A stretch of 59,408 nucleotides of DNA, counting the filler. It is 4 parts of 4 records of this genome, joined end to end, with 100 filler letters (N's around TTAATTAATTAA, not from the genome) between each part and the next. Parts side by side here need not be neighbours in the genome. Positions count along the whole stretch, not along the records: positions 27,294 to 33,637 come from SRR31156797_1666; 3 more parts are not named here. One strand, written 5' to 3'. This document shows, in pieces, positions 21,059 to 48,645 of the stretch. Positions within the stretch are counted from its first letter, which is position 1. Each line of letters begins with the position of its first letter. Under the pieces are notes generated by a model that was not told where the DNA came from, ran no database searches, and saw only the letters and a program-made list of their open reading frames with translations. The position numbers and the translations under genes are program-made.

Positions 21059-24000
21059 ATGTCGAAAACCAGACAACCAGATTACTTGTTTGAGACAAGT
21101 TGGGAAATTTGTAATAAAATAGGTGGAATACATACAGTTATTGCCACGAAAGTACAAAGCTTACAGAAAATCTTTGGCGATCATATAATTATGGTCGGTC
21201 CCGATACAATGCAGAATATAGAAGGAAATCTAGAATTTGAGGAAGATAAATCATTGTTTCCGCAGTGGCTGTCACTTGCCCATCAAGATGGACTAAGGGT
21301 AAGAACCGGGCGTTGGAAAATTGAAGGAAATCCTATTGCTATTCTGGTAGATTTTACTCCGATGGTTGGTAAGAAAAATGAGATACTTGCTGAGTTATGG
21401 GAAGAGTATCATGTAGATTCAATTGCAGGTCAATGGGATTATTTGGAGCCACTTCTTTTTGGATATGCTGCCGGTAAAGTAATTGAACATTTTTCAGAAT
21501 ACCAATTATCAAGCAGACATTCAATTGTAGCTCATTTTCATGAGTGGATGACTGGTAGCGGAGTGCTTTATCTGAAAAAGCATGCGCCATGGGTGTCTAC
21601 AGCTTTTACCACACACGCTACAACTATTGGTCGATCAATGTGTGGAAACGGTGTCCCATTATATAAAAATTTAGAAAGTCATAATGTAGAAAAATTTGTC
21701 AATGACTTTCAAATGACAGCAAAATACTCATTGGAGAAGCAATCGGCTAAAAATGCTGATGTGTTTACTACTGTAAGTGAAATAACGGCTGAAGAATGTA
21801 AATACTTACTTCAGGAAGAAGTTGATTTTGTAACGCCCAATGGCTTTGATATGAGGATTGTGCCTGAGAAGGCCCAGTTCAAATTGAAGAGGGAAGCTGC
21901 ACGTACTAAATTATTTGAAGTACTTGAGAAATTGTACGGCAAAAAAATCCAAAATGATGCGCTGGTTGTGTTAACCAGTGGAAGATATGAATGGAAGAAT
22001 AAAGGGATTGACGTATTCATTAAAGCTTTCAGTAAATTAGTAAATGATAATCCGGGAAGAGATATTATACCGCTGTTTTTAATTCCATCGGGGCATGGAG
22101 GAGTTAGGAATGAGTTATTAAACGCGTTGCAAGAAAATAAAAATGAAGGTCTCAAACAACCATTTTTAACGCATGTGTTGCATAACCGCGATCACGATCC
22201 AATTGTGAATGAGCTCTGTGCATTGAAATTACATGAAAAAGGAAGTGTTTATCCATTATTTGTACCTTGCTATTTGAATGGGGCTGATGGATTATTTAAC
22301 CTGGGCTATTACGATATGCTTACCGGTGCTGATTTGGGGGTATTTGCCTCATATTATGAGCCTTGGGGTTATACGCCACTTGAATCTATGGCATATAGCG
22401 TTCCAGCAATTACAACAAGTTTAGCAGGTTATGGCCGTTGGATTGATAAACCTGATTTGACAATTGATAAAGGAGCAAGTGTAATTCCTCGTTCAGATGA
22501 TAATGATAATGAGGTAATTGATGCTATTGTTGCAGATATTTCTGCCTATTTAAAATTAGATGAAAAAGAGGTCGAAGCAGCCAGAGATAAAGCAGCTGAA
22601 ATTGCCAGAGGAGCCCTATGGGAAAATCTGATTGAGAAATACGAGGAAAGCTATGCACTGGCACTTGAAAAATCATCTGACCGACATCGTAAACCAAGAC
22701 CAAGAATAGAAATTGAGAGACCTCAATTATATAGCGATAAAATTAATAATGAGCCGGGTTGGAAAAAAATGGTTATTCAGAGCTCCATACCAGAAGAGTT
22801 AAGCGCATTGAATGACATTTCTCAAAATTTATGGTGGACATGGAATTTCGAGGCTACGCAGCTTTTTAAATCGATGGATGAGGAATTGTGGTATGAAAAT
22901 GATAAAAACCCAATTGCCTTGTTGAATAAAATTTCAAAAGATCGACTTACATCGCTAGTGGCTGATAAAGAATTTATGAATTCTTTTGAGAAGGTAAAAA
23001 ATGCTTTTAATGAATACATGGCTGAAAAATCTGATGAATCACACACCATTGCATATTTTAGTATGGAGTATGGTTTTCATGATAATATTAAGATTTACTC
23101 GGGTGGTTTAGGAATTTTAGCCGGAGATTACCTGAAAGAAGCTTCAGATAATGCTGTAAATCTAATATCAGTCGGATTCTTATACAGATATGGATATTTT
23201 AAACAACAACTTACGCTTAGTGGAGAACAACAAGCTATTCGTGAACCTCATAATTTTAATGATTTACCTGTAACACCATTAAAAGATGAATTTGGTAATC
23301 CTGTGATGGTGAAAATTAATCTTCCGGGTCGATCAGTTTATTTGAAAGTATGGATTCTCATGGTTGGCCGTAATCCATTGTATTTGCTTGATGCCGATAT
23401 TGATTTCAATAATTATGAAGATCGACAAATTACCCATCAATTATATGGTGGAGACTGGGAAAATCGGTTGAAACAGGAGATTGCGCTTGGATTTGGGGGA
23501 ATTCGCCTGTTGAAACACTTAGGTTATAAAATTGATACTTTCCATTTAAATGAAGGACATGCCGCATTTATCAATATTGAGCGGATTGCCAATTTGGTTG
23601 AAGAAGAGAAGCTTTCTTTTGATGAGGCACTTGAAGTTGTGCGTAATACTTCATTGTTTACAACGCATACACCTGTACCGGCTGGTCACGATGTATTTAA
23701 AGAAGACCTCCTTCGTATGTACATGAGACATGTGCCTGAACGATTAGGTATTTCGTGGGAAGACTTAATGCAAATCGGTCGTATGAATCCTGTTGATTAC
23801 AATGAACCGTTTTCAATGAGCGTGCTGGCAGCTAATACCTGCAAGGAAATGAACGGTGTGTCTGATTTGCACGGAATTGTATCACGTGAAATGTTCCAGA
23901 GATTGTACAAAGGGTATTTTGCCAATGAATCGCATATTGGTCATGTAACCAATGGTGTACACTATCCAACCTGGACTGCCAAAGAGTGGAAAAAGTTACA

Positions 24001-25282
24001 TAACGATTATTTTGCACCTGATTTCTATAAACACGTGGACAAACGTGAATTATGGAAGAAAATATACGATGTGCCGAATAAAGAAATTTGGAGTATTAGA
24101 CAATTATTGCGTCAGAAGCTAATTGATTATATCAAAGAGCGTTTTGAAGATAACTTTGAAAAACGGAATGATAATCCAAGACGTATTTTGCAAGTATTAG
24201 AAACCATAAACCCCAATACTTTGACTATTGGTTTTGCAAGACGTTTTGCTACTTATAAGCGAGCACATTTGTTGTTTACAGATACTGAGCGTTTGAGTGA
24301 AATTGTAAATAATCCTGAAATGCCGGTACAGTTCGTATTTGCCGGTAAGGCGCACCCTGCCGATAAAGCCGGGCAAGATTTGATTAAGCATATTATCGAG
24401 ATATCTCAACGCCCAGAGTTTTTAGGAAAGATCATATTTATTGAAAACTATGATATACAATTGGCCAAACGATTAGTGAAAGGTGTGGATATATGGCTAA
24501 ATACACCTACCAGACCATTAGAAGCTTCCGGAACCAGTGGTGAGAAAGCAACCATGAATGGTGTGCTAAACTTCAGTGTGTTAGACGGTTGGTGGCGAGA
24601 AGGATATAGGCCCGGAGCCGGTTGGGCATTACAAGAAGAGCGTGTGTATGAAAATCAGCAATTCCAGGATGAGCTAGATGCTGTGAATATTTATTCTATG
24701 CTTGAGAATGAGATCGTTCCGTTGTTTTATAAGCGTGACGAAGATGAATTGCCCAATGATTGGATTGAGTATATCAAAAATAATATTGCACAGGTAGCAC
24801 CGGAGTTCACCACACATCGAATGTTGCATGATTATATCCGGAATTTCTATGAGCCATTGAAAGAGCATGGCAAAGAGATTTTAAAAGGTAATTATGCCAA
24901 GGCCACTGATATTGCCATTTGGAAGCAACATATTTACGATGCATGGGAAGAAATTGAAGTGGTGAATGTTGATTTCCCTGATACCTTAAAACATGATTAT
25001 CGATCAGGTAATAAGTATCATGGTGAAGTAGTATTAGCTCTTAAAAGATTAAAACCGGAAGAAGTTGGAATTGACCTGGTTTTAGCTTCTGACAATCATA
25101 AGATGGTAAACGCTGAGGAGGTTTACGAGCTGAAATATGAGAAAACTGCGGATAATTTATATTTCTACTCAATTGATATTGAGTTAGAGGATCCAGGTAT
25201 GTTTGAGTATGGATTACGTTTGTATCCGAAAAGCGATTTATTGAAATACAAAACAGAATTAAACCTTGTGAGGTGGATATAG
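21059..25282 (+). CDS. Fused GT3 glycogen synthase and GT35 alpha-glucan phosphorylase
   Basis: N-half: FETSWEICNKIGGIHTV, HFHEWMTG, FTTHAT, GRYEWKNKG, SYYEPWGYTPLE. C-half: AYFSMEYG, YSGGLGILAGD, HLNEGH, FTTHTPVPAGHD, FARRFATYKR, PLP motif EASGTSGEK. One uninterrupted ORF. Confidence 0.93.
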   Translation: MSKTRQPDYLFETSWEICNKIGGIHTVIATKVQSLQKIFGDHIIMVGPDTMQNIEGNLEFEEDKSLFPQWLSLAHQDGLRVRTGRWKIEGNPIAILVDFTPMVGKKNEILAELWEEYHVDSIAGQWDYLEPLLFGYAAGKVIEHFSEYQLSSRHSIVAHFHEWMTGSGVLYLKKHAPWVSTAFTTHATTIGRSMCGNGVPLYKNLESHNVEKFVNDFQMTAKYSLEKQSAKNADVFTTVSEITAEECKYLLQEEVDFVTPNGFDMRIVPEKAQFKLKREAARTKLFEVLEKLYGKKIQNDALVVLTSGRYEWKNKGIDVFIKAFSKLVNDNPGRDIIPLFLIPSGHGGVRNELLNALQENKNEGLKQPFLTHVLHNRDHDPIVNELCALKLHEKGSVYPLFVPCYLNGADGLFNLGYYDMLTGADLGVFASYYEPWGYTPLESMAYSVPAITTSLAGYGRWIDKPDLTIDKGASVIPRSDDNDNEVIDAIVADISAYLKLDEKEVEAARDKAAEIARGALWENLIEKYEESYALALEKSSDRHRKPRPRIEIERPQLYSDKINNEPGWKKMVIQSSIPEELSALNDISQNLWWTWNFEATQLFKSMDEELWYENDKNPIALLNKISKDRLTSLVADKEFMNSFEKVKNAFNEYMAEKSDESHTIAYFSMEYGFHDNIKIYSGGLGILAGDYLKEASDNAVNLISVGFLYRYGYFKQQLTLSGEQQAIREPHNFNDLPVTPLKDEFGNPVMVKINLPGRSVYLKVWILMVGRNPLYLLDADIDFNNYEDRQITHQLYGGDWENRLKQEIALGFGGIRLLKHLGYKIDTFHLNEGHAAFINIERIANLVEEEKLSFDEALEVVRNTSLFTTHTPVPAGHDVFKEDLLRMYMRHVPERLGISWEDLMQIGRMNPVDYNEPFSMSVLAANTCKEMNGVSDLHGIVSREMFQRLYKGYFANESHIGHVTNGVHYPTWTAKEWKKLHNDYFAPDFYKHVDKRELWKKIYDVPNKEIWSIRQLLRQKLIDYIKERFEDNFEKRNDNPRRILQVLETINPNTLTIGFARRFATYKRAHLLFTDTERLSEIVNNPEMPVQFVFAGKAHPADKAGQDLIKHIIEISQRPEFLGKIIFIENYDIQLAKRLVKGVDIWLNTPTRPLEASGTSGEKATMNGVLNFSVLDGWWREGYRPGAGWALQEERVYENQQFQDELDAVNIYSMLENEIVPLFYKRDEDELPNDWIEYIKNNIAQVAPEFTTHRMLHDYIRNFYEPLKEHGKEILKGNYAKATDIAIWKQHIYDAWEEIEVVNVDFPDTLKHDYRSGNKYHGEVVLALKRLKPEEVGIDLVLASDNHKMVNAEEVYELKYEKTADNLYFYSIDIELEDPGMFEYGLRLYPKSDLLKYKTELNLVRWI

Positions 25283-27193: not shown

Positions 27194-27293
27194 NNNNNNN
27201 NNNNNNNNNNNNNNNNNNNNNNNNNNNNNNNNNNNNNTTAATTAATTAANNNNNNNNNNNNNNNNNNNNNNNNNNNNNNNNNNNNNNNNNNNN
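27194..27293. other. Artificial contig linker
   Basis: N44-TTAATTAATTAA-N44, with stops in all six frames; composition and gene content change across it. Confidence 0.97.
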
Positions 27294-27890
27294 ATAGTTG
27301 GTAAAGTAACAAATCTTAAGCAGTTTGCCTGAAACCGCGTAGAATTCTCCTTTGAGGGGGTAAAAAGTCTCTTTCATCACCCAAATCCGCACCTTATGAT
27401 ACGTCACTTTTTCATTTTTCGCTGTCAGATCAAGAACATAAAATGCTTTTTCTTTAATTGTTACCTCTTCTGTTAAGACCGGGTCATAGTCACCTGAAAA
27501 ATTTGCCCTTGCAATATCACCATTGGCAGCCTCGCCAAAAAGCCTCTGCTGCAAAGAAATTCTAAGGGGTTTGGAAATATTCTGAAGAAATACCCATAAG
27601 TCATACCTGAGCATTAACAGAGAAGTCCCTCTGTCCATTTCAGGTTCCAGGGTTTTAATGATGGTTTTATCCTGCCCTTTCATTAAAATTTCATAGGCCG
27701 CTGTTTTATCCTTTTTCCCGGGTTTTTTGCTGACCAACTTTGCGGTGACCTTGTAGTCGGATTGAGGATTTCGCACGGCATCCATATTCTGCAGTATTTT
27801 TTCCGCCGTCAGTGCGTTTGCTGATGCAACCGTAGAATAAATAAAAAATCCAGCCATTGCAATCGCCATAAATCTGAAAAAAAAATTCAT
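27294..27890 (-). CDS. Outer-membrane lipoprotein-sorting (LolA-like) protein, 3'-truncated
   Basis: Signal peptide ending ASANA, PEMDRGTSLLM, PLRISLQQRLFGEAANGDIARANF, FYAVSGKLLK. Confidence 0.8.
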
Positions 27891-27902
27891 TGAAAAAATT
27901 CC

Positions 27903-29153
27903 TTAATAATGTCTCAATGCATCTGTAATATTGAGGTTAGAGGCTTTAAACGCAGGATAAAAAGATGAAATTAAAGCTGCTGTAACTGAGATCATCATTG
28001 AGGAGACCAGAAGCTTTGGGACGACCTTGATAAATGCAACCCAACCTACTGTAGCACCGGGTGGCGGCGGCATTGGGATGCCGATAAATGAGATCCCCCA
28101 AGCCAGACCGGCACCCATTGCAATACCTGCAATACCGCCTAAAAATCCTAGAATCAGTCCTTCGGTTAGAAAGAGTTTTAATATATCTGTCTTTTTGTAC
28201 CCCATTGCCATTATTGTTCCGATCTCACGGGTCCGCTCCCAAATCGCCATGTTGATGGTGTTAAAAATACTTAAAACCACAATAATGGTTATAATCAACT
28301 TTAAAACGAAAAACTGCCTGCCATACAATTCAACAGTTTTATTATAGAAATCGGCCAGCTGGTTCCAGACCTTTATTTCAAGCCTCATACCTTTAATTGT
28401 TTTCAGGACCTGTTTTTTGACTGCCTGTGTATTTTCGGTTCGGTCAAGGAGAACAACAAGGGTCTGAATGCCCTGTGTCCTGATAAGTTTTTGGGCAATA
28501 TGCATGGGTAACCGCAGCGCCCTGTCATCAAATTCCTTTGACGGTGTGAAAAAAATACCCTTCACATTCAGGTCAAAGGCGTTTAAAGATCCGCCGACGG
28601 TATTGGTCAAAAGTACCAACGAATCTCCGGGCTTAGCCCCGATATTTTTTGCCAGTCCCCGGCCGAGTATGATTTCAAACTCATCCCCTTTTACAAGGTT
28701 GGCACCGGCCTGAATGGCAAGTCCCGTATCGGCACTTTTGATCGTATCAATCTTATTTAAAAGCAACTCTCCCTGCGGATCTATCCCCTGGCAGAAAACG
28801 GCAACGGTATTGTCCCCGGTGCTGATCATACCTGAAAATGAAATTCTGGGGGTAACCAGCTTAACATGTTCCAGAGCAGTAAGTTTGCCTGTAATTTCTT
28901 CTGGGGCTTCAATCAAATAATCAAAAGGCGCTGAAGAGCCATGGTCATTATACCCTTTCTTATAGATCTGAATGTGCCCAAGATGGCTGTGGATAACGCC
29001 TTCCCTCATCTGCATAAAGGTATCCTCAAAAAAACCGCCGGCAATAATGATGGAGACTGAGCCGAATGCTATAGCGGCAAGGGTAATCAGGCTTCTGATT
29101 TTATTTCTGAATACATTCTTCAATGCTAATTTTAAACTTATAGGTAGTTTCAT
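27903..29153 (-). CDS. ABC transporter permease, LolE/MacB/FtsX family
   Basis: LALKNVFRNKIRSLIT, GHIQI, large periplasmic loop, NTINMAIWERTREIGTIMAMG, C-terminal YPAFKASNL..DAL. Confidence 0.9.
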   Translation of the reverse strand: MKLPISLKLALKNVFRNKIRSLITLAAIAFGSVSIIIAGGFFEDTFMQMREGVIHSHLGHIQIYKKGYNDHGSSAPFDYLIEAPEEITGKLTALEHVKLVTPRISFSGMISTGDNTVAVFCQGIDPQGELLLNKIDTIKSADTGLAIQAGANLVKGDEFEIILGRGLAKNIGAKPGDSLVLLTNTVGGSLNAFDLNVKGIFFTPSKEFDDRALRLPMHIAQKLIRTQGIQTLVVLLDRTENTQAVKKQVLKTIKGMRLEIKVWNQLADFYNKTVELYGRQFFVLKLIITIIVVLSIFNTINMAIWERTREIGTIMAMGYKKTDILKLFLTEGLILGFLGGIAGIAMGAGLAWGISFIGIPMPPPPGATVGWVAFIKVVPKLLVSSMMISVTAALISSFYPAFKASNLNITDALRHY

Positions 29154-29914
29154 TTAATTAGACTCCCTGCGCTGGTTTCCTGTTCTTCTTTCCTCCCCTT
29201 GATAAGATCCGTTTTCGATGCCGATCCGCCTGTCAAATGGCTGTATTTTGAAATTTTCCCGTCACGGATGTTGATAATTCTTGAAGCCATACCCATGACT
29301 TTGGGGTCGTGGGTGGAAAAAACAAAGAGGGTCTTTTTTTCTTCATTAATCTGTTTCATAATTTCAAGAATTTTTTCGCCTGTTTTAATATCAAGATTGG
29401 CCGTGGGTTCGTCGGCAAGGATGATTTTGGGATTTGTTACCAATGCTCTGGCAATGGCCACCCGTTGCCGCTGACCGCCGCTGAGTTCATCGGGCCGATG
29501 TTTGATATGCTTGTCAAGCCCAACACTATGCAGGGCGTGTAGAATTCTATCCCGTCGCTTAGCCGGATTTTTTTCGCTCATGAGAAGTGGATATTCCACA
29601 TTCTCATAAGCAGACAGCACCGGGATAAGATTAAAAGTTTGAAAAATAAAGCTTAGTTTTCTGGCCCTGATATCAGCCAGTTGGTTTGAATTCATCCGGC
29701 TTACATCCTGACCGTCAATTTCGATATATCCTTTATCGGCTTTATCAATACATCCAATCAGGTTCAACAAGGTGGTTTTACCGCTTCCAGAGGGACCTGC
29801 AATGGCCAAAAATTCTCCTTTGTCAACGCTAATACTGACATCATCTAACGCCGTTACCTTTACCTTACCGAGTTGAAAAATTTTTGTTACATTTTTTACC
29901 TTTATAATATTCAT
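29150..29914 (-). CDS. ABC transporter ATP-binding protein, LolD-like
   Basis: GPSGSGKT, FIFQTFNLI, LSGGQRQR, ILADEPTANLD, STHD; 4-nt overlap with the permease. Confidence 0.93.
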   Translation of the reverse strand: MNIIKVKNVTKIFQLGKVKVTALDDVSISVDKGEFLAIAGPSGSGKTTLLNLIGCIDKADKGYIEIDGQDVSRMNSNQLADIRARKLSFIFQTFNLIPVLSAYENVEYPLLMSEKNPAKRRDRILHALHSVGLDKHIKHRPDELSGGQRQRVAIARALVTNPKIILADEPTANLDIKTGEKILEIMKQINEEKKTLFVFSTHDPKVMGMASRIINIRDGKISKYSHLTGGSASKTDLIKGRKEEQETSAGSLIK

Positions 29915-29943
29915 AGCTATTCACCGGATAATTTATGGGTAAA

Positions 29944-31962
29944 TCAAATCAACAGATCTTTCATTTGCTTTCTCAGGGTTTGGTATTTTATCTTTGGGGC
30001 TTTACCAAACCTGAATAGCATGACCTGGCCCTTCTGTTTAAAATTGCAGCCTGAAAAAATAGATTCATACTCATCCAGAATATCGTTAAGCAGCTTCCTG
30101 TGCCTACGATCAAATGCCATATCTCCTTCGAGCTGCTTTCGCAAAAAAAATAAGGTGACTGCCGTCATGGGCTGAAGTTCAAATCCGTATTGGGTCAGAG
30201 TGAGCCAGATCCGTTCCAGAGCACGTCCTCCGTTGAGAAAATTTTCCTCCTGGAAACCTTGGGTAACCACAAGGCCGGCACCGGACGAATTGATGATGGC
30301 GTCATATGCCGTTTTCGCAATAATTTTACCGAATCCAAGTTTATTTGCCATGTTCATTACCGGCCATGAACGGGTGGTACGAAGAAAAGCTTCACCATGC
30401 ATACCGGCCTCAAGATTTTTAATATAAAATCCGTTCCTCTTATTCAATGTTTCATCTATAGAAAAGCGGATCATTTTAAGTAAATGTTCGTGGAGATCCT
30501 GTCTTTCCGTCCTGATCCGATCTGATTTGCCCACAAGCCGTGCAAGTTTTTTAAGCTGCAGCCTATTCGTTATAAAATGAATATCTGTACCTGGAATGTC
30601 CCGGATTGAATTGCGCAGTTCACTTAGCAATGCCTGGGAGATCTTTTGGTTGTCAAATAACTTTCGATTGGTTTTTCGCTGCCAAATATAGCCGGCAAGT
30701 GTATCCTGTTCAATGGTGTCGGTTTGAGATAAATTTATTTGTGCGGTTTTGCCGTCCTGCCCGTAACAGATATCTGCTGTCAGGCCAAAACAGGTAGCGG
30801 CAACTTTCATATTTTCAATCACAGCACCGCAGGAAATGACTGAGGCCGTCTGGTTTACGTTGAAAAAAGAATCATCCGCAGTCCTGTCCAAGTAGAGGTC
30901 TATCTGGTTATTTGATTTGGCAAATTTCCAAGGCTGGGCATTGTCGCCGGAAGGTGCCTGTATCCCGGCCTTTATAATGTAGTCAAGGATATCTTCGGGT
31001 ATATTACCATCCTGCATCTGAGTTTTTGGTATTTCAGGTTCCTCAGGTCCAATGGGAGTGTTTCTGCTCAACATTTTTTTTACCAGCTCGGCTTTGACTT
31101 GTTGCCAGGGGTTTTTATTGCCCATATGCAATTTTTTTGTGCAATATTTCCGAAGATAAGGATCAAACTGATAATAATGGGGAACCGGTTTCACACCACC
31201 CTTTCCCAAAATGATTCTAACCGCCTCTGTTCCAGCGATACCCGCGCAAAGCTGGCAGGCAATATTCAGGGATGGGGCTTTCCTTGACTTAAAACTGAGC
31301 TTTGAGGTGTCCATGTATTGAAACTGGAGTGCTTTGGGCGCAAGTCCCATGGCAAAGGCAAGATATTGGTCTTCCGGTTTCATATCTTCGACAATATTGA
31401 AATACTCATCAAATTCCATTCCTTTGTCCGGTGCGAATATCAGCATAGCGGAACCGAATCCTAAAGGGCCTGCCGTAATTACATGAATCCCTTTTTCCCT
31501 TGCTCTGTTAAACAGTTGCCTGCGGATATCAAAGGCAAAAAAATCCAGAGAATCTAGAACAAGAGAAACACCTTCTAAAAACGCGTCTATATTTTCTTTA
31601 CAAATTCCTTCTGGAAATTCTTTGATCTCCAAAAAGGGATTGATGCTCAGGGCTTGTTCCTTCATTACTTCCAGTTTGGGGCGACCGAATTCCGGCACTC
31701 GGGCCCCGAACTGACGATTAACATTAACCGGTTCGTATATATCAAAATCGGCAAGATTAAACCTTGCGATTCCCGTTCTCACCATAGTGATGAGGTATGC
31801 ACCGCCCACACCGCCCATGCCCGGAATGGCAATTCTGGCCCTGGCAAGGGCTTCTTGTTCTTTCGGAGACAGGAGGCCGATATTTCGTGAAAAAGCCTCG
31901 GCATGATATTCCTTCTGGGAAAAAATGCCGTATTCCCTAAGTTTTTTAAAATATGTGTCCAT
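29944..31962 (-). CDS. ThiF/E1-like adenylyltransferase fused to a nitroreductase-family flavoprotein (OxzB-type architecture)
   Basis: N-half: FSRNIG, GMGGVGG, DFD..VNVNRQ, KLEV, LDSLD. C-half: QAPSGDNAQPWKF, GAVIENM, QRKTNRK, GGRALERIWLTLT..LQPM, LFRFG. Confidence 0.88.
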   Translation of the reverse strand: MDTYFKKLREYGIFSQKEYHAEAFSRNIGLLSPKEQEALARARIAIPGMGGVGGAYLITMVRTGIARFNLADFDIYEPVNVNRQFGARVPEFGRPKLEVMKEQALSINPFLEIKEFPEGICKENIDAFLEGVSLVLDSLDFFAFDIRRQLFNRAREKGIHVITAGPLGFGSAMLIFAPDKGMEFDEYFNIVEDMKPEDQYLAFAMGLAPKALQFQYMDTSKLSFKSRKAPSLNIACQLCAGIAGTEAVRIILGKGGVKPVPHYYQFDPYLRKYCTKKLHMGNKNPWQQVKAELVKKMLSRNTPIGPEEPEIPKTQMQDGNIPEDILDYIIKAGIQAPSGDNAQPWKFAKSNNQIDLYLDRTADDSFFNVNQTASVISCGAVIENMKVAATCFGLTADICYGQDGKTAQINLSQTDTIEQDTLAGYIWQRKTNRKLFDNQKISQALLSELRNSIRDIPGTDIHFITNRLQLKKLARLVGKSDRIRTERQDLHEHLLKMIRFSIDETLNKRNGFYIKNLEAGMHGEAFLRTTRSWPVMNMANKLGFGKIIAKTAYDAIINSSGAGLVVTQGFQEENFLNGGRALERIWLTLTQYGFELQPMTAVTLFFLRKQLEGDMAFDRRHRKLLNDILDEYESIFSGCNFKQKGQVMLFRFGKAPKIKYQTLRKQMKDLLI

Positions 31963-32262
31963 TAACTTTTTATACCTTTTGTTAATGATTTTTGGTTGTT
32001 AAAAGATATTATCTACAACGACTTTTTCATTAAGAAAGTGATTCCCGTTAATTTTTCCGCATCAATCAGGTTTATTCAGTAAGCAGTCTCTTCAAGGTAG
32101 GTAGTTTTAAATTCCTGGCGGGCTTTTACCACGTATAAAACATCCGCCATCCGCCTTGATTTTTTTATTTTAACTTGACTTCCACATGGCCTCTAAATAT
32201 TCTGATATTATCACGGGCAAAAATCCTTATCCACATAAAACTTATAAAATCAGGGGTTTCAA

Positions 32263-33003
32263 ATGTTTGAATTCAATTATGGAAAATTCCGTTTCAAGGA
32301 AGTAGATTCGGATGACCTTCGCAGGCAAGTCTTTAGACTGAGGTATGATGTTTATGCACGGGAATTCGGCTTTGAAAATCCTTATGACTTCCCGGACAAT
32401 TTGGAAAAAGATGAATACGATGATCACTCAGCGCATTTCGTCGCTCTGAATGAGGAAAAGGAGGTGATTGGAACGGTGAGGATGATATTGGACTCGCCAA
32501 AAGGATTTCCTGTGGAGCATGCAGCCAAGATAACAGATTTTAAAGACAAGCCGAATCCGGCCTTTATTACGGAAGTGTCGAGGCTTGCTGTATCTAAAAC
32601 AATGCGCCGCAGGCCCGAAGACGGCATCTATGGTGTGGAATCTTATATTCCCAAATCCAAAGGCGGTGTATCCGATATCCCTAATAAAAACAATCTCGCC
32701 ATCGAAAAGCGACAAAGGCCGATGATTATTCTCGGGCTTTATAAAACTGTTTATTTAAAATGCAAGGCACTGGGAATCACACATATGTATATGATAACCG
32801 AAGATAAATTGTTTCATGCATTAAGAAAATTCGGTTTTATTTTTACACAGGTTGGGGAATCGGTTGACTATCATGGCAAAAGAACACCTTACGCCACTTC
32901 GTGGGAAGTCATTGAGAAGTATATGGTACAAAATCATCCTGATTTGCTGGAATTCTTAACATTCGGTCTTAATGAAAAATATCGACCCAAATTTTTGGAT
33001 TAA
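32263..33003 (+). CDS. GNAT N-acyltransferase of the N-acyl amino acid synthase (FeeM/OxzA) / PEP-CTERM-associated acyltransferase family
   Basis: VFRLRYDVY..E.GFE, EKDEYDDHSAH, IGTVRMI, EVSRLAVSK..RRR, VDYHGKRTPY. Confidence 0.85.
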   Translation: MFEFNYGKFRFKEVDSDDLRRQVFRLRYDVYAREFGFENPYDFPDNLEKDEYDDHSAHFVALNEEKEVIGTVRMILDSPKGFPVEHAAKITDFKDKPNPAFITEVSRLAVSKTMRRRPEDGIYGVESYIPKSKGGVSDIPNKNNLAIEKRQRPMIILGLYKTVYLKCKALGITHMYMITEDKLFHALRKFGFIFTQVGESVDYHGKRTPYATSWEVIEKYMVQNHPDLLEFLTFGLNEKYRPKFLD

Positions 33004-33160
33004 CGTTTTTAAGCCTTTGCTACTTTTACATTTATCATCTTCCGAATTTCGTTCAGTCGCCCGAAGCATTCTTCACCCTGTTGCAAATTAAAGAGAGACC
33101 TTGATGAAAATAATCCCAGGCATAGTCTTCAAATTTCCTCCTTATCCTGCCCAAGTTTAT

Positions 33161-33457
33161 TTAGATAAACTTAAAAAATGATACAATGGTTATAATTTTC
33201 TGGCGGGAAAAGTTTAAACTCAAAAGCAGAAAACCAATTTTCATTACATTTGAAAATATTTGTTGCTCCATCTCGTATGCTTCATATTCTGGTGCCATCT
33301 CTTTCATAAGATTAAAAAGCTTATTGACCTGGATTTGACCTTCCGATATGCTTTATTTCTAATGAGAATGCTTGTAATCTCATATCAATACCTCATCTTT
33401 TTTTTGTTGCCACATAAAAATCTAAGATAAGTTCAAATGGACTACAAGCATTCTCTC
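33161..33457 (-). pseudogene. Probable IS left end with a frameshifted transposase N-terminal fragment (ISKra4-like, tentative)
   Basis: GAGG SD and ATG at 33383 (MRLQAFSLEIK), continuing in another frame as SEGQIQVNKLFNLMKEMAPEYEAYEMEQQIFSNVMKIG. A 15/16 inverted repeat links 33440-33455 and 33364-33379. Confidence 0.4.
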
Positions 33458-33467
33458 ATAGGCAATC

Positions 33468-33637
33468 CTATGTTTTGTTTTTTCGAGAAGCGATACATCG
33501 AGCCGGATTCCCCACTGCAATAGCATAGTCCGGTAATGAATTTATAACAATGCTCCCCGCTCCGATTACGCATCCTTTGCCGATATCGGCTGCGATAATA
33601 GCACCATTTCCTATCCAAGCGTCCTTCCCGATGGTAA
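33468..33637 (-). CDS. Hexapeptide-repeat O-acyltransferase (LbH), 5'-truncated; absent from the ORF track
   Basis: My translation: TIGKDAWIGNGAIIAADIGKGCVIGAGSIVINSLPDYAIAVGNPARCIASRKNKT*. Confidence 0.85.
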
Positions 33638-33737
33638 NNNNNNNNNNNNNNNNNNNNNNNNNNNNNNNNNNNNNNNNNNNNTTAATTAATTAANNNNNNN
33701 NNNNNNNNNNNNNNNNNNNNNNNNNNNNNNNNNNNNN
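33638..33737. other. Artificial contig linker
   Basis: N44-TTAATTAATTAA-N44. Confidence 0.97.
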
Positions 33738-34544: not shown

Positions 34545-35498
34545 ATGCAGCCCCATCCCCTGAAAGAGACTAAAAACCGGCCCTTTCCCCTCCTGGACCC
34601 CGAAAAGCGCCTGTCCGGGGAGAACCGCTGGGAGTTCCGGATCCAGGACGGGTTCTGGCTCAGTCTCCTGGATGTCCGGCCCGAAGAAAAACTCCGGCTT
34701 GCATATGAAAAAGACCGGCCCACCCTGAATTTCGGGTTTATCCTGTCCGGCAATTACCTCAACCGGATCAAGGCCCCGGGCCTGGGGCAACAGGGGTTAT
34801 CCAACCATGAGGGCGCCAGCGGCATCCTCTACCTTCCCCGCCAGCAAGGGGAATTGATTCTCCCGGGCCAAACCCGGGTCCGGGTGCTGCACATCCATCT
34901 GTCCCTGCCGGTTTTTTATGACCTCTTTCACCTGGACAGGGCCACCATCCCCCAAAACCTCACGCCCCTCCTGGAGGGTCCCGTGGACCACGCCTATTGC
35001 TTCAGGGCCGGCATGGCCATGGATGTCCGGTGGACCCTGGACCGGCTGGTGCAGGGCCCCCCCCCGGGCACCCCGGCCCGGCTCTTTTACCAGGGCATTG
35101 CCCTGGACCTGGTGGCAGGCCAGATTGCCCGGGCAAACGCCGCCCCCCCGTCCCCCGGGGAAATGGGACTGGATGACCATGACCGGGTGATCCAGGCCCG
35201 GCACCTCCTGGTCCGGGATCTTTCCTCACCGCCCTGCCTGAAACAACTGGCCCGGCAGACCGGCCTGAACATGAACAAACTCCAACAGGGGTTTCACCGG
35301 CTCTACGGCATGTCCGTGTTCAAATACCTGCACCAGTACCGGATGCAGGAGGCCAACCGCCTCTTCCATGAGACGGACATGAATGTGAGCCAGGCCGCAT
35401 CCGCCGTGGGGTACACCAATATCAGCCACTTCAGCAACGCCTATAAGAAACAGTTCAACATCCTTCCCAAAAAACACCTGGCCTGCATCAAGGGCTGA
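34545..35498 (+). CDS. AraC-family regulator, PchR/YbtA-like
   Basis: C-terminal PPCLKQLARQTGLNMNKLQQGF..YGMSVFKYL..RMQEA..NVSQAASAVGYTNISHFSNAYKKQF. Confidence 0.9.
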   Translation: MQPHPLKETKNRPFPLLDPEKRLSGENRWEFRIQDGFWLSLLDVRPEEKLRLAYEKDRPTLNFGFILSGNYLNRIKAPGLGQQGLSNHEGASGILYLPRQQGELILPGQTRVRVLHIHLSLPVFYDLFHLDRATIPQNLTPLLEGPVDHAYCFRAGMAMDVRWTLDRLVQGPPPGTPARLFYQGIALDLVAGQIARANAAPPSPGEMGLDDHDRVIQARHLLVRDLSSPPCLKQLARQTGLNMNKLQQGFHRLYGMSVFKYLHQYRMQEANRLFHETDMNVSQAASAVGYTNISHFSNAYKKQFNILPKKHLACIKG

Positions 35499-35627
35499 AG
35501 TTTGTGTCTGACGGGTTAAAATTCGGGTGGTTCCGGGTAGAATCCAAGTCCCTCCTTTCAGTATAGTTCCCAAGACTCAGCACGGGTGCTGATTTCAGAA
35601 TTATTTCCCAGTTTGAAAGGAGTTCAA

Positions 35628-36272
35628 ATGACATCCAATGGACAACGCCCCCCTGTGGGGAAGATGACGCGAAAAACAACCTCCCTGACCCTGGCCTTTT
35701 CCGGCCTGGTCATGCTGGTGACCAGCCTGGTCCTCTATTTCGGACCGGCCGGCCAGGTGGGCCACTTCTGCCCCTGGTCTTTCATGGGCCTTTCCCGCCA
35801 CCACTGGGGAGCGCTTCACCTGAATTCCGGCCTCCTCTTCTGCCTGGCCATGGGGCTCCATGTTTACCTGAACTGGTCCCTGCTCCTGGCCTATGTGAAA
35901 AAGCAGAAGCCCGGGTATCCGGCCCTGGCAGTTTCCCTGATCCTTACCCTGTATACCTGCGTGGGGGGATATTATGAACTTGCACCCATGGGCCAGTTCC
36001 TGGACATCGCCCGGGGCTGCCGCATGGCATCCATGGAAAAATACGGCTCCCCTCCCTACGGGACCGCCACGACCTTTCCCGCGGCCCACATTGCCCGGTA
36101 CATGGGATGGGACCCTGAAAAAGCCTTAAAACAACTCACCGCCAGCCACATTGCGGTCCACTCCCCCAACCAGTCCCTGGCGGATCTTGCCCGGGAAAAC
36201 CACACCAGCATCGGCCGGCTTTTAGACATCATGTGCACCCGGTCAAACGGAGATTTTGAAAATGAGAAATAG
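35628..36272 (+). CDS. DUF4405-domain membrane protein (cytochrome b-like histidines)
   Basis: TSLTLAFSGLVMLVTSLVLY, WGALH, GLHVYLNW; GGAG SD before ATG 35628; C-terminal SLADLAREN domain. Confidence 0.75.
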   Translation: MTSNGQRPPVGKMTRKTTSLTLAFSGLVMLVTSLVLYFGPAGQVGHFCPWSFMGLSRHHWGALHLNSGLLFCLAMGLHVYLNWSLLLAYVKKQKPGYPALAVSLILTLYTCVGGYYELAPMGQFLDIARGCRMASMEKYGSPPYGTATTFPAAHIARYMGWDPEKALKQLTASHIAVHSPNQSLADLARENHTSIGRLLDIMCTRSNGDFENEK

Positions 36273-38436
36273 ATTTGCCTCCCCCACGGGGATTGCTTCC
36301 CTTTTAGGGTCCCTGGCCCTGTTCATTTTTTTGGCCGGCCCTGTTTCGGCCGAACCGGCCCGGGCGGACCAGGAACCGAATCCGCCCTCCCTGGCCCTGG
36401 AATCCACCACGGTCACGGCCCACAAGCGGACCCTGCAGGTCCGGGATATCCCGGACTCCATCACCGTGCTCACGGACACAATAATGGAGGATGCCGCCAT
36501 CACGGGCATGGAAGGATTGTCCCTCCATGTGCCCGGCCTGGAATTCTATAATTTCGGATCCCGGCGCCATAGCCTGGCGTTCATGCGGGGCATCAAGAGC
36601 CTGCACAACGGGGAACCGGCCACCGGGTTTTACGTGGACGGGGTCAACTACGCCAAATCCTATATGTTTGATTTCCCTTTGTTTGATGTGGAGCGCATTG
36701 AAATCCTCAAGGGGTCCCAGGGCACCCTTTACGGGAAAAACACCATGGGCGGGGTGATCAATGTCCACACCCGCCAGCCCGGCAATGACACCGAGGCCCG
36801 GGTGGGCGTAGAGTACGGGGAAGACAACCTCAAGGGGGTGAACGCAGCGTTAAGGACGCCCCTGGTCAGGGACCGGCTCTTCCTGGGCCTGGCCGCCACG
36901 GCCCAGTCCAGGGACGGGTACATGGAAAACGACACCCCGGCCCCGGGAGAGGAGGGCCGGCATACCGAGGGCGGGGCCGGGCGCATCAAACTGAAGTACC
37001 GGCCCAGCGACCGCCTGGATATCAATCTGAGCCTGGACGGCCAGGACCATGAGGGCGGGGCCTTTCCCCTGCGCCGGACCCAAAGAAACATGTTCGTGAA
37101 AAAAGGCCTCCTGCCCGCGGACCCGTCCTACCATTATTCCCACGATTTCGAGGGCACGGCGGAGGACCGGTTCTTGGGCGCCGCCCTCAACGCGGATTAC
37201 CGCATGGACCACCATACCCTGACCTGGATCACGGGGTACCGGGATTACCGGGACCGGGAATCCGTGGATTCGGATTTTTCCCCCCTGGACATGACCCGGC
37301 TCAACTATGGCCAGGATGAAGAAAGCGTTACCCAGGAGGTCCGGCTGGCCTCGGACGGCGACCGGGACCTGGACTGGCTGGTGGGGGCCTATTATTTCCG
37401 CAATGAAAGCGACAACTCCCAGGAAACCCTGTTCCGGTCCGCCATGGCCGGCAACCCCAACAACCCCTTTGGGGACGGCACCGGCGCCCGGCGCCTCGAC
37501 TCCAGGGGCGTAAATGAAGGGACGGCCCTGTTCGGCCAGGCCACGGTAACCCTGCCCGCCGGCCTGGAACTGACCGCCGGGCTCCGGTATGAACATGAAA
37601 ATGCCGACATGGACCGGACCATGACCAATACCCCGGACCGGGGCAATCCGTCCCGGATGGTGTTTCCCGATGCGTCCAACACGTTTGACGCCGTCCTGCC
37701 CAAGGTCAGCCTGGCCTGGGCCATGACCGACCACCACCGGGTCTATGCCACGGTTGCCACAGGCCAGCGCTCAGGGGGATTCAACGCCACCCCCCGGGCG
37801 GACTTGGCCGATTTTGATGAAGAAACCAGCCGCTCCTATGAGATCGGCACCAAGCTGGGATTCCCGGACAAGGGGGTGAGCCTGAACCTGTCCGGTTTTT
37901 ACATGGAGATCGACCAGGAACAGATCACCCAGTTTGATGTTGACACCAACTCCCCCTATATCGTCAATGCGGGCCGGTCCCACCGCCTGGGCCTGGAGGC
38001 CGAGCTGGCCTGGGCCCTGGCCCCCGGCCTGGACCTGAACGCCGGCCTCACCCTGCTGGAAGCCGAATATGACCGGTATGCCGACCCGGCCCTGGGCATC
38101 GATTTTGAAGGCAACCGGGTGTTCGGGGTCCCGGACCATACCTATAACCTGGGCCTGAGCTACCGCCGCCCCCTGTGGGAACAATGGAACTTCATGGGCC
38201 GGGCGGACCTGTCCGGCACCGGGAGCCGCTATTTTGACGATGCCAACACCGCCAAGGAAAGCGCCTACCAGATCGTCAACCTGAAGCTGGGCCTGGAAGG
38301 CAACCACCTGGATGCCTATGTCTGGGCCAAAAACCTGTTTGACCGCCACTACCTGGCCTTTGAAAACGCGGCCAAGGGCATTGCCGAGGACGGTCCCCCC
38401 AGGACCGTCGGGGTGTCGGTCAGTTACCGGTTTTAA
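36262..38436 (+). CDS. TonB-dependent receptor (FyuA/pesticin-receptor-like)
   Basis: Signal peptide, TonB box LESTTVTA, YVDGV..DVERIEILKGSQGTLYGKNTMGGVINV, NLFDRHY, C-terminal YRF. Confidence 0.93.
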   Translation: MRNRFASPTGIASLLGSLALFIFLAGPVSAEPARADQEPNPPSLALESTTVTAHKRTLQVRDIPDSITVLTDTIMEDAAITGMEGLSLHVPGLEFYNFGSRRHSLAFMRGIKSLHNGEPATGFYVDGVNYAKSYMFDFPLFDVERIEILKGSQGTLYGKNTMGGVINVHTRQPGNDTEARVGVEYGEDNLKGVNAALRTPLVRDRLFLGLAATAQSRDGYMENDTPAPGEEGRHTEGGAGRIKLKYRPSDRLDINLSLDGQDHEGGAFPLRRTQRNMFVKKGLLPADPSYHYSHDFEGTAEDRFLGAALNADYRMDHHTLTWITGYRDYRDRESVDSDFSPLDMTRLNYGQDEESVTQEVRLASDGDRDLDWLVGAYYFRNESDNSQETLFRSAMAGNPNNPFGDGTGARRLDSRGVNEGTALFGQATVTLPAGLELTAGLRYEHENADMDRTMTNTPDRGNPSRMVFPDASNTFDAVLPKVSLAWAMTDHHRVYATVATGQRSGGFNATPRADLADFDEETSRSYEIGTKLGFPDKGVSLNLSGFYMEIDQEQITQFDVDTNSPYIVNAGRSHRLGLEAELAWALAPGLDLNAGLTLLEAEYDRYADPALGIDFEGNRVFGVPDHTYNLGLSYRRPLWEQWNFMGRADLSGTGSRYFDDANTAKESAYQIVNLKLGLEGNHLDAYVWAKNLFDRHYLAFENAAKGIAEDGPPRTVGVSVSYRF

Positions 38437-42441: not shown

Positions 42442-44445
42442 TTAAAAGCGAACAGAGGCAAGCACGCCCATGGTGCGGGGAGGCCCCACCGCGTATAAGC
42501 CAAAGGTCCGGGAACTGAAATACTCCTTGTCCAGCAGGTTGTTCACATAAAAATAAAGATCCCAGTTTGACGCTTCATAACCGATCTTGGCATGAACCAA
42601 CTGGTAGGGACTCCGTTTATAGGTATTGGCTTCGTTATAGTAGGTGGTACCGTATCCCTCCATTTCTCCCCGGAGGAAAAAACCGGAAGCATGCCGGTAC
42701 TGGGCGGCCAGGTTATAGGTATATTCCGGCGTTTGCAGGGTGGTCTTGCCGGAGAATTCGCCATAGTCATCAAACTCGGATTCGGTCCATGCCAGGGCGG
42801 CGGTCAGATCCAGTCCCCGGACAGGCCGGGCCTTTGCTTCGATCTCAATTCCCTGGCAGTGGGCTTCAGCGGCATTGGAGGCAACCAGGATATTGTCCCT
42901 TGGATTGCTCCAGACATGCATATCCTCAATGTCCACATAGAAAAGCGCGGTGTTCAAAAACAGGCGATTATCGAACCAGGCGGTTTTTGCCCCGAATTCA
43001 TAGTTCAAAGAGGTCTGTTCATCAAATTTCGCAGCGTCCCTGTCATCCCCGAAATTATTCATACCGCCGGCCAGATATCCCTGGGAGATACTGAAATAGA
43101 TCATGGCGTCTTTGTTGATAGTCCAGGAAAGCACTCCCTTGGGCAGCAGGGCGTCCCAGTCCTCGTCCAGGTCCCACGCCACGGTTGAGATGAGGGCGTT
43201 GGTACCGAGACTGGTGATCCGGCTTCGGTAATCCAGCTCCTTATGGATCCGCTCGTATCGTAATCCGGCTGTAAAGTTCAGTGAGGGAACAATGGGAATG
43301 GTCATCTGGCCGAAGACGGCCGCGGCCTCTTCCAATTCATCAACGGGCCGGTCGATAACCATGTTGTAGGTGTTATAAACCGCCCCGGCCCTCTCGGAGT
43401 CATTTTCCTCATTGGAATAGTAGAGCCCCGCCAGCCATTTGATGCCTGTCTCATTCTGGGGGGACTGCACCCGGAATTCCTGGGTGAATGCGTCCGTATC
43501 CACCAGCCGAAAGGTCTGCACCGTTCCGTTTCGATCTTCCAGGTGGTCGTTTTCAGTGTTTCGATAGGTGGTTATGGAATTCAATTCCGCAAAGTCCGCC
43601 CGGTAGCAAACCTTTAACGCCGCATTAAAAAGATCTGCGTCGTTTTTATCGCTGGGATTCCGATTTTCATGGTACTGGATCGAATCCGAATAGATGGTGT
43701 CACTGGAGCCATTACGCTTTTGGGCAAGCCCGGCATGGAGGTCTATCTCCAGCCGGTCGGACGGCAGCCAGTTGAGTACGGCATTGGCGGCATTCGCTTC
43801 CCTGTCGCCATAGTAATCCCTGTCCGGATGATCATTTTTCAGAAAGCCCCGGGTTTCATGATGTTTGGCGGAAAGCCCCAGATACAGTTTATCCTTTATG
43901 ACCGGGCCGTTGATAAACCCTTTGAGCCCATAGGTTTCATCTTCTCCCGCCTCACCGGTCAGTTTTGCTTCCACCCGGTTGCCCGGTTTTTTGGATATGA
44001 CATTGATCACGCCGCCGATGGCGTTCTTCCCGTACAAGGTGCCCTGGGGACCGCGCAGGACCTCGATCCGATCAACCCCGGCCAGGTCCAGGTCATAGAA
44101 CAAGGCATTGTCAAAGGGGATGCCATCCACAAAGATGACAATGGGATTCTTGCCGGTCAGGGTACTGACGCCCATACCCCGGTAACTGGCATTCTCCATG
44201 CCCGATGCATCCAGTGTCAGCCCGGGGATCATCTCAATGACGTCCCCGATGGTTTCCACCCCGGCATCCTCGAGTTCCGTCCCGGTAAAGGCCGTCACGG
44301 CCGCCGGGACTTCCTGAATATCTTCCGCCCGCTTATCCGCCGTGACCGTGAGGGATTCCAGCTTGTATTCCTCTGCCGCCGACACCTGAAACGGCCATAC
44401 AATTACTGCCAGGAGCAGCACCACAAACACATTTCTCAATTTCAT
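42442..44445 (-). CDS. TonB-dependent receptor (FyuA-like)
   Basis: Signal peptide, LESLTVTADKR, RIEVLRGPQGTLYGKNAIGGVINV, NNLLDKEY, C-terminal VRF. Confidence 0.93.
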   Translation of the reverse strand: MKLRNVFVVLLLAVIVWPFQVSAAEEYKLESLTVTADKRAEDIQEVPAAVTAFTGTELEDAGVETIGDVIEMIPGLTLDASGMENASYRGMGVSTLTGKNPIVIFVDGIPFDNALFYDLDLAGVDRIEVLRGPQGTLYGKNAIGGVINVISKKPGNRVEAKLTGEAGEDETYGLKGFINGPVIKDKLYLGLSAKHHETRGFLKNDHPDRDYYGDREANAANAVLNWLPSDRLEIDLHAGLAQKRNGSSDTIYSDSIQYHENRNPSDKNDADLFNAALKVCYRADFAELNSITTYRNTENDHLEDRNGTVQTFRLVDTDAFTQEFRVQSPQNETGIKWLAGLYYSNEENDSERAGAVYNTYNMVIDRPVDELEEAAAVFGQMTIPIVPSLNFTAGLRYERIHKELDYRSRITSLGTNALISTVAWDLDEDWDALLPKGVLSWTINKDAMIYFSISQGYLAGGMNNFGDDRDAAKFDEQTSLNYEFGAKTAWFDNRLFLNTALFYVDIEDMHVWSNPRDNILVASNAAEAHCQGIEIEAKARPVRGLDLTAALAWTESEFDDYGEFSGKTTLQTPEYTYNLAAQYRHASGFFLRGEMEGYGTTYYNEANTYKRSPYQLVHAKIGYEASNWDLYFYVNNLLDKEYFSSRTFGLYAVGPPRTMGVLASVRF

Positions 44446-47947: not shown

Positions 47948-48143
47948 CCATGTATTTCCATTCGTTATAAAGCATAAAGTTTCAAAGTCAATCATTTCTT
48001 AGCCCAAGCTAACTTGCAAGGGGTTATACAGTCATCATCATTGAAAATCAATACAGTCGCATTTTCACACCCCCAAAACGCCAACCCGCCATTAACATTA
48101 ACAAAACAACCAGTTACAGCCCGCCAAAGCGCCCCAACCTGTT

Positions 48144-48545: not shown

Positions 48546-48645
48546 NNNNNNNNNNNNNNNNNNNNNNNNNNNNNNNNNNNNNNNNNNNNTTAATTAATTA
48601 ANNNNNNNNNNNNNNNNNNNNNNNNNNNNNNNNNNNNNNNNNNNN
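48546..48645. other. Artificial contig linker
   Basis: N44-TTAATTAATTAA-N44. Confidence 0.97.

Follow-up and report, generated by a model that had tools for sequence, protein, structure and literature searches.

A ThiF-nitroreductase fusion with a divergent N-acyltransferase in a Desulfobacter-like anaerobe: a probable acyl-oxazolone module with export genes and an exosortase association

The window analysed here is a stretch of 59,408 nucleotides composed of four pieces joined by three N44-TTAATTAATTAA-N44 spacers (27194-27293, 33638-33737 and 48546-48645), and this work deals with two neighbouring genes on the piece at 27294-33637 (6344 bases), which code for a ThiF-nitroreductase fusion protein and an N-acyltransferase (GNAT). 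In a first-pass annotation these genes had been proposed to form an OxzAB-like pair of a candidate oxazolone pathway. Both open reading frames (ORFs) were found exactly as claimed, one of 672 aa on the minus strand and one of 246 aa on the plus strand with a 300-bp spacer between them (Table 1), and so were the motifs GMGGVGG (residue 48), DFD (72), NVNRQ (80), APSGDNAQPW (336) and RKTNR (429) of the fusion. A 42.7-kb contig of run X1 contains all 6344 bases with 0 differences, X1 being possibly the source of the piece and not an independent observation. On the evidence given below, the fusion is predicted to work like OxzB but lies outside the proteobacterial OxzB-like clade.

In the 672-aa protein, Pfam detected ThiF (1e-41, residues 25-285) as well as Nitroreductase. 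Its full-length score with the NCBIfam family PRK14851 was 1165.1 bits versus a curated cut-off of 1170, and a 76% identical relative in genome G001 scored 1219.8; both PRK14851 and PRK14852 are hypothetical families without assigned chemistry. The ThiF half passed the cut-off of PRK08223 (359 versus 266 bits), as did the OxzB-like proxies introduced below, and the cut-off of the Rv1355c/TrzS family PRK07877 was missed (273 versus 476 bits). An AlphaFold model of the fusion, with a predicted local distance difference test (pLDDT) score of 93, matched the structures of AclA (9egb), Acg (2ymv) and E. coli ThiF (1zfn), while no solved OxzB, TyzB or TrzS structure was found by sequence or fold search.

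Residue conservation was judged over 59 anaerobe-clade and 60 proteobacterial sequences. GxGGVG, D72/D74, N80-N82-R83-Q84, K96, D137, D140, PSGDNxQ, R429, R433 and R484 were invariant in both sets, and Q597, R651 and R664 were kept at 97% or more across them. R484 and Q597 align with residues 530 and 641 of a Rhodococcus Rv1355c-family protein, in both cases 10 positions before their TrzS counterparts R540 and Q651; from this constant offset we infer that they are the equivalents of these two residues, and either D137 or D140 would correspond to D217 of TrzS. Mutating TrzS R540 or Q651 lowers flavin mononucleotide (FMN) content and turnover (PMC12856293). The OxzAB-like enzymology proposed at first is thus supported by domains, fold and catalytic residues. 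Decay of the gene was considered and rejected, since the fusion departs from its relatives at 5 of 201 conserved columns, the median among 79 relatives being 4. The ratio of nonsynonymous to synonymous substitution rates (dN/dS) versus the homologue at locus L010 was 0.057 for the ThiF domain and 0.13 for the nitroreductase domain, the synonymous sites of the latter being saturated versus L081. Among the 18 Desulfobacterota genomes that carry the ThiF family, the nitroreductase was detected in 14 (fused in 5, separate in 9). Judged by these substitution patterns, the flavin domain is maintained in anaerobes under purifying selection.

Acyl-oxazolone formation has been described for proteobacteria: OxzA makes N-acyl-tyrosine from acyl-coenzyme A (acyl-CoA), and OxzB with ATP then gives the oxazolone; the 56 OxzB proteins of de Rond et al. 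are alpha-, beta- and gammaproteobacterial, with oxzA frequently preceding oxzB in the same direction (bioRxiv 10.1101/2020.06.11.147165). It has been argued that FDO-A enzymes paired with ThiF make acyl-oxazolones broadly, and TyzB shares one subcluster of a sequence similarity network with the ThiF domain of OxzB, tyzA lying on the strand opposite to tyzBC (PMC10404671). In TrzS, cyclisation comes first and is followed by desaturation with O2 (PMC12856293). The gene set has been extended to Planctomycetota (PMC12479983), and OxzB has been reviewed (PMC12596934). The enzyme chemistry itself is therefore not new, being published for OxzAB, TyzACB and TrzAS.

Ten fused proteobacterial proteins, including those of Colwellia, Pseudoalteromonas sp. 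and Thalassotalea, were used as OxzB-like proxies. The fusion of the window was 30-36% identical to them overall, with 41-48% in the ThiF domain and 22-26% in the nitroreductase domain. Trees were built for both domains; their group labels are mostly those of the search that found each row, the two sets come from separate searches so that intermediate lineages may be missing, and the OxzB of Pseudoalteromonas rubra is not a row. In a quick IQ-TREE phylogeny of 76 ThiF domains (reduced from 296 at 72% identity), a branch of length 1.02, with an SH-like approximate likelihood ratio test (SH-aLRT) support of 100, set all 30 Pseudomonadota-type rows apart, and the fusion stood outside this group. 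In a FastTree phylogeny of 65 nitroreductase domains, it fell within a 37-row clade of anaerobes with a support of 99. Among 11 matches in 401 Pseudomonadota genomes there was no fused ThiF-nitroreductase. The idea of a subfamily distinct from the proteobacterial OxzB-like proteins is borne out by both trees and by the identities. The first-pass annotation had named a di-domain outside the OxzB clade and inactive on N-acyl amino acids as one outcome that would count against it, and the half of that statement which concerns the clade came true, as judged with proteobacterial proxies in both trees.

Like OxzA/OxzB of P. rubra and other proteobacteria, the pair consists of an N-acyltransferase and a ThiF-nitroreductase di-domain of about 650-680 aa, with a PRK08223-type ThiF and with invariant residues in common with the proxies; unlike them, it forms a separate branch in both trees and has an anaerobe host, a divergent GNAT and a dedicated export chain. 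TyzA/TyzB/TyzC and TrzA/TrzS of mycolic-acid actinobacteria comprise the same three activities, with tyzA on the opposite strand and TrzS as a ThiF-FDO fusion. However, the TrzS family PRK07877 is about 24% identical to the fusion, the hosts of TyzC and TrzS are aerobes with O2-dependent desaturation, and the available parts of the two reports (PMC10404671, PMC12856293) do not mention a PEP-CTERM or LolA/DUF1302 context for these systems. The divergent layout had also been taken as a mark of the subfamily: the divergence across 300 bp is real, but an opposite-strand acyltransferase is found with tyzA as well, and only 6 of the 35 loci having an upstream gene show a divergent GNAT.

The GNAT passed TIGR03694 with 182 bits versus a cut-off of 111.95 and also matched the FeeM profile, and its fold matched those of TofI, BjaI, LasI and FeeM (2g0b), that is, the acyl-homoserine lactone (AHL) synthase/FeeM fold. 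PF00765 was matched with 27.9 bits and in the N-terminal half alone, far less well than TIGR03694. A LuxI-type AHL synthase was rejected because of this weak PF00765 match and the lack of a LuxR among the scanned neighbours. Craig, Cherry and Brady are said to have described in 2011 the exosortase-associated N-acyl amino acid synthases of TIGR03694 and their linkage to PEP-CTERM. The GNAT resembles these synthases in passing the same model and in the PEP-CTERM linkage, and here a ThiF-nitroreductase tailoring step and an export chain are added.

In order to follow the gene content around the fusion, 46 related loci (24 from GTDB, 22 from metagenomes) were compared, with counts taken from the 22 loci of at least 12 kb; these counts omit the window itself, the D. 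vulgaris plasmid described below, locus L101 (35% identical) and shorter loci, L007 and L086 are apparently duplicates of a single locus, and L024 contains frameshifts. A GNAT was present in 17 of the 22 loci (TIGR03694-type in 12, FeeM-type in 12, both in 7), so that the co-occurrence of the two genes holds in related loci. Moreover, 13 of the 34 top GNAT matches compared were implied, by equal sizes, to lie on the same contig as a ThiF-nitroreductase match. In the closest GTDB relative (L033/G001:C222:229276-231073), an intact TIGR03694 GNAT, 66% identical to that of the window, diverges from an internally deleted ThiF-nitroreductase copy, and an intact ThiF-nitroreductase with exporter stands elsewhere without a GNAT, so that the GNAT may act in trans. 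Within the export cassette at L004:6100-7284, L011:6206-7396 and L093, an acyltransferase of FeeM fold (about 395 aa) is joined to a cyclic-nucleotide-binding domain (by Pfam for L004), which suggests second-messenger control of lipid synthesis.

The best named relatives of the fusion, among the 120 of 730 matches listed, were proteins of Desulfobacter postgatei (89%) and Desulforapulum autotrophicum (77%), and the best named relative of the GNAT was an uncultured Desulfobacter protein (87%). Members of Desulfobacter reduce sulfate and are strict anaerobes. Close homologues were present at 24 GTDB loci, of which 20 bear the name of a Desulfobacterota group and the other 4 are labelled no more precisely than Proteobacteria or Deltaproteobacteria. 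An anaerobic, Desulfobacter-like host is thus well supported by homology, as had been proposed, while neighbours elsewhere in the window cannot be used for this purpose, because the window consists of joined separate pieces. RNA runs X4 and X16 gave contig pieces of relatives that match the ThiF and exporter genes at about 90-98% identity and are not evidence of transcription; the shares in the other runs were small. At L024 (Desulfothermus okinawensis), decay or sequencing error has left the entire cassette in many small frames.

The fusion is followed on its own strand by genes for an exporter and a LolA-like carrier, as shown in Table 1.

Table 1. Features of the 6344-base piece that carries the two genes, in window coordinates.
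Feature	Coordinates	Strand	Basis
LolA-like periplasmic carrier, truncated by the piece end	27294..27890	-	PF17131 6e-34
MacB/FtsX-type (LolC/E-like) permease; 4-bp overlap with the ATPase; 86% to L010	27903..29153	-	MacB_PCD + FtsX
ATP-binding cassette (ABC) ATPase, LolD/MacB type; starts 29 bp past the ThiF-nitroreductase stop; 86% to the same-position gene of L010	29150..29914	-	Profile searches
ThiF (E1-like, predicted adenylating cyclodehydratase, ~18-300) fused to Acg-type monomeric nitroreductase/predicted FMN-dependent desaturase (~320-672)	29944..31962	-	Pfam, NCBIfam, AlphaFold model, homology; PRK14851 family, OxzB/TrzS-like architecture
Divergent intergenic region, 300 bp	31963..32262	.	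ORF coordinates
N-acyltransferase, TIGR03694 (PEP-CTERM/exosortase-associated), AHL-synthase/FeeM fold; probable N-acyl amino acid synthase	32263..33003	+	TIGR03694 score, fold match
Hexapeptide-repeat acyltransferase, 3' end alone (55 codons), at the piece edge	33468..33635	-	37% over 54 aa to the hexapeptide gene of related cassettes

Similar export genes recurred in the related loci. An exporter was present in 18 of the 22 (MMPL in 10, FtsX in 8), DUF1302 in 14, a LolA-like gene in 13, a GT1 glycosyltransferase in 7 and a hexapeptide acyltransferase in 3, and PEP-CTERM genes were found in 11 by our own pattern, Pfam confirming those that were scanned. In L009, L010, L013, L014, L080 and L084, the LolA-like gene is followed by one for an AMIN-DUF1302 outer-membrane barrel. 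The pump is of the ABC type in some loci and of the MMPL type in others, while the LolA-like and DUF1302 genes persist, which indicates a single export task. DUF1302 is a predicted 18-strand barrel, and in Castellaniella defragrans the AmeABCD system, which exports hydrophobes, is made of a DUF1302 protein, a LolA-superfamily protein and an RND pump (PMC6394551). The chain described here has in common with AmeABCD the DUF1302 barrel, a periplasmic protein of the LolA superfamily and an inner-membrane pump, but differs in its PF17131 LolA-like protein, its ABC or MMPL pump and its context, which is biosynthesis here and detoxification in Castellaniella. Downstream of DUF1302 in L009, L010 and L080, the cassette ends with genes for a hexapeptide acyltransferase and, in convergent orientation, a GT1/UDPGT glycosyltransferase, which suggests glycosylated or O-acylated products. 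In the window itself, the hexapeptide O-acyltransferase reported next door is a 55-codon fragment with a weak match to related cassettes and none at 1e-3 in a database of neighbour proteins, which gives no ground for assigning it to the cassette.

The ThiF family occurred in 18 of 301 Desulfobacterota genomes and an exosortase in 106 of them. The exosortase was present in 16 of the 18 carriers and in 90 of the 283 other genomes (p 2e-6, with kinship crudely controlled), and it was still found in 9 of 10 carriers when the centre genome and seven look-alikes were removed (p 3e-4). Among the 401 Pseudomonadota genomes it occurred in 8 of 11 carriers versus 51 of 390 others, in 6 of the 8 within 10-48 kb. 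The same association in Pseudomonadota makes the exosortase link a general one of the ThiF family and not one special to anaerobes. Together with the exporter and PEP-CTERM counts, these figures agree with the linkage that had been proposed. A general role as PEP-CTERM anchor, raised at the same time, is contradicted: since 90 of the 106 exosortase-bearing Desulfobacterota genomes lack the module, it is accessory and not universal. What is less ordinary here than the chemistry is that this branch occurs in anaerobes, keeps its flavin enzyme, has export genes of its own and goes with biofilm surface-protein systems.

A related protein is found in Desulfovibrio vulgaris Hildenborough, where DVUA0034 of plasmid pDV1 is a 989-aa FeeM-ThiF-nitroreductase triple fusion (PRK14852, 40% identical) located between the XrtA exopolysaccharide (EPS) operon and three PEP-CTERM genes. 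It differs from the pair in the window in that its FeeM-type GNAT is fused, while the TIGR03694-type GNAT is separate here. DVUA0034 is non-essential, with 232 central barcoded insertions in a published supplement row. Its transcripts per million were 5626 in anaerobic biofilm cells versus 1428 in dispersed cells, and its overproduction changed biofilm formation significantly, oxazolones not being linked with it in the relevant passages (PMC6170446). It was not among the listed sigma-54 targets of DVUA0057. DVUA0034, annotated earlier as thiamine/molybdopterin-type, offers a tractable sulfate reducer with transposon mutants and a biofilm effect, in which product, acceptor and role are directly testable.

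Taking these data together, we think it more likely than not, and the most probable reading, that the module acylates an amino acid, closes an oxazolone with ATP, desaturates it by FMN where an oxidant is given, and exports the product, an accessory lipid for the PEP-CTERM/EPS layer at the cell surface; every one of these reactions is deduced. The TIGR03694 acyltransferase would transfer a fatty acyl group from acyl-CoA or acyl carrier protein to an amino acid, which is aromatic in all characterised systems. By analogy with OxzB, TyzB and TrzS, and given the conserved ATP-site residues, ThiF would adenylate the carboxylate, and the amide oxygen would close the ring. The FMN domain, whose conserved residues and purifying selection fit such a role, would then desaturate the ring to an alkylidene oxazolone. 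The first-pass annotation had suggested that the electron acceptor of this step could be new. No recurring electron-acceptor or electron-transfer partner was seen among neighbour genes of the related loci; a dedicated acceptor gene was rejected, as a GMC oxidoreductase cluster occurred in just 2 loci and a B12 radical SAM gene in one scanned locus, and a literature search on electron acceptors of anaerobic azoline oxidases gave nothing relevant. Because no partner gene was found, the flavin may instead be reoxidised by a general cellular acceptor or by O2 at oxic-anoxic interfaces, and if no oxidant is available the saturated oxazolone would be expected to accumulate, as it does with TrzS. Judging from gene content and from the example of AmeABCD, the ABC permease, the LolA-like carrier and, in relatives, the DUF1302 barrel may bring the lipid, or the N-acyl(dehydro)amino acid formed by its hydrolysis, as far as the outer membrane or cell surface, where it would serve the PEP-CTERM/exopolysaccharide biofilm layer with which the module is associated. 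With such a branch, the pathway would extend to strict anaerobes and be connected with a chain for lipid export as well as with PEP-CTERM/EPS biofilm loci. A literature search found no report that ascribes oxazolone chemistry to any sulfate reducer, subscription journals and bioRxiv supplements (including Table S1 of de Rond et al.) being outside reach.

Several observations weigh against this proposal. The low identity of the flavin domain to the proxies, and its absence from the detected matches in 1 of the 10, mean that substrate or reaction could differ, and the comparison was made with proxies instead of the characterised OxzA/OxzB sequences of P. rubra. Desaturation by TyzC and TrzS needs O2, as published, which fits a strict anaerobe poorly, and no assay of any anaerobe-clade member was found in the literature searched. 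The nitroreductase is under weaker constraint than ThiF (dN/dS about twice) and was missing at 1e-40 in 4 of the 18 carriers, whose genomes are incomplete. His56, kept in 236 of 238 relatives, is replaced by Tyr in the fusion of the window. No GNAT is among the available upstream genes of L010 and L080, and that of the L010 genome is found elsewhere, beside a broken ThiF-nitroreductase copy. Finally, the direction of the biofilm effect of DVUA0034 is given in a figure and not in the text passages (PMC6170446).

Among the alternatives, the product might be a diffusible signal that tunes biofilm formation, like N-acyl-cyclolysines, AHLs or stieleriacines, with ThiF possibly closing a lactam instead. 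AclA is the best structural match of the ThiF half, N-acyl-cyclolysines are published as quorum signals of Bacteroidota, and the AHL-synthase fold of the GNAT, the cyclic-nucleotide-binding domain of some GNATs and the altered biofilm upon DVUA0034 overproduction point the same way. However, AclA is 22% identical versus 41-48% for the OxzB-like ThiF domains, no LuxR- or TetR-type receptor recurred among 105 scanned neighbour proteins, and a LolA-like carrier with lipid-type exporters better fits a membrane-bound lipid, so that we regard a signal as unlikely.

Azlactones are reactive acylating agents. The oxazolone could hence be an activated acyl donor instead of an end product, lipidating exosortase-cleaved PEP-CTERM proteins or EPS at the periplasm or surface. 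Their lability was seen in de Rond et al. and in PMC12856293, the steps after exosortase cleavage were left open by Haft 2006, and a PEP-CTERM gene stands immediately downstream in 9 of the 31 loci having a downstream gene; the GT1 genes, an export chain ending at an outer-membrane barrel and the strong exosortase association are also consistent with it. Yet just 16 of the 106 Desulfobacterota and 8 of the 59 Pseudomonadota with an exosortase have the ThiF, which therefore cannot be a general anchor, 2 of 18 and 3 of 11 carriers show no exosortase, and mycobacterial systems function outside such a context. Besides, azlactones are electrophiles, and sortase-type transpeptidation would need a nucleophile. 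A donor role is accordingly about as doubtful as a signal, if not a shade more so. Its boldest form, in which an O2-independent acyl-oxazolone pathway operates in sulfate reducers and an ABC (or MMPL) pump, LolA-like carrier and DUF1302 barrel deliver the azlactone to the cell surface for acylation of PEP-CTERM proteins or EPS, we consider a little less probable again. The physiological role of acyl-oxazolones is a major open question (bioRxiv 10.1101/2020.06.11.147165; PMC12856293), and if true, this form would give oxazolones their first physiological role and corrosion-causing biofilms a new kind of surface lipidation.

It might also be that the flavin step rarely or never runs in anaerobes, or runs as a reductase, with the saturated oxazolone or N-acyl amino acid as product and the nitroreductase serving for O2 exposure or as scaffold. 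TrzS accumulates the cyclised saturated intermediate at limited O2 (PMC12856293), and the lack of a recurring acceptor gene, the 4 carriers without a detected nitroreductase and its twofold dN/dS agree with an idle domain. But the FMN-contact residues are invariant over about 60 anaerobe-clade sequences, a dN/dS of 0.13 is still strong constraint, and the domain is detected in most carriers, which leaves this reading with a rather poor chance. Lastly, a cofactor (thiamine or molybdenum cofactor) enzyme, or one maturing ribosomally synthesised and post-translationally modified peptides, unrelated to the acyltransferase, is suggested by database names such as 'molybdopterin/thiamine biosynthesis adenylyltransferase' and is largely refuted, since the 672-aa protein was far below all cut-offs of the ThiF, MoeB and TcdA equivalogs, a GNAT is fused to ThiF-nitroreductase in D. 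vulgaris, and the neighbours show no recurring family of sulfur carriers, YcaO proteins or precursor peptides.

Some related loci depart from the arrangement seen in the window. At L003:7280-8797 and at L088, a B12-binding radical SAM gene comes right after the ThiF-nitroreductase gene, a possible O2-independent tailoring step. In L053, L056, L066, L070 and L071 (genomes G614, G656 and G633), a stand-alone ThiF adjoins MMPL, DUF1302 or LolA-like genes with nitroreductase undetected, possibly an oxidase-free form; G614 and G656 have two copies each of the stand-alone ThiF.

Regarding the window as a whole, sigma-70-like sites were at chance level over 31900-33637 (5 versus 5.8 expected), and an exact sigma-54 pattern had no match anywhere in it. 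The GC contents of the four pieces are 0.349, 0.415, 0.557 and 0.51, and ORFs that span the spacers are artefacts. The first piece gives a Bacteroidota-like impression, the window consisting of mixed organisms or a contaminated bin. By its translation, a 1407-aa ORF at 21059-25282 (plus strand) resembles a fusion of glycogen synthase and alpha-glucan phosphorylase. In the third piece, an AraC regulator, a DUF4405 protein, TonB-dependent receptors and one or more ABC exporters (34545-38436 and 42442-47995) have the look of a metal or siderophore uptake island.

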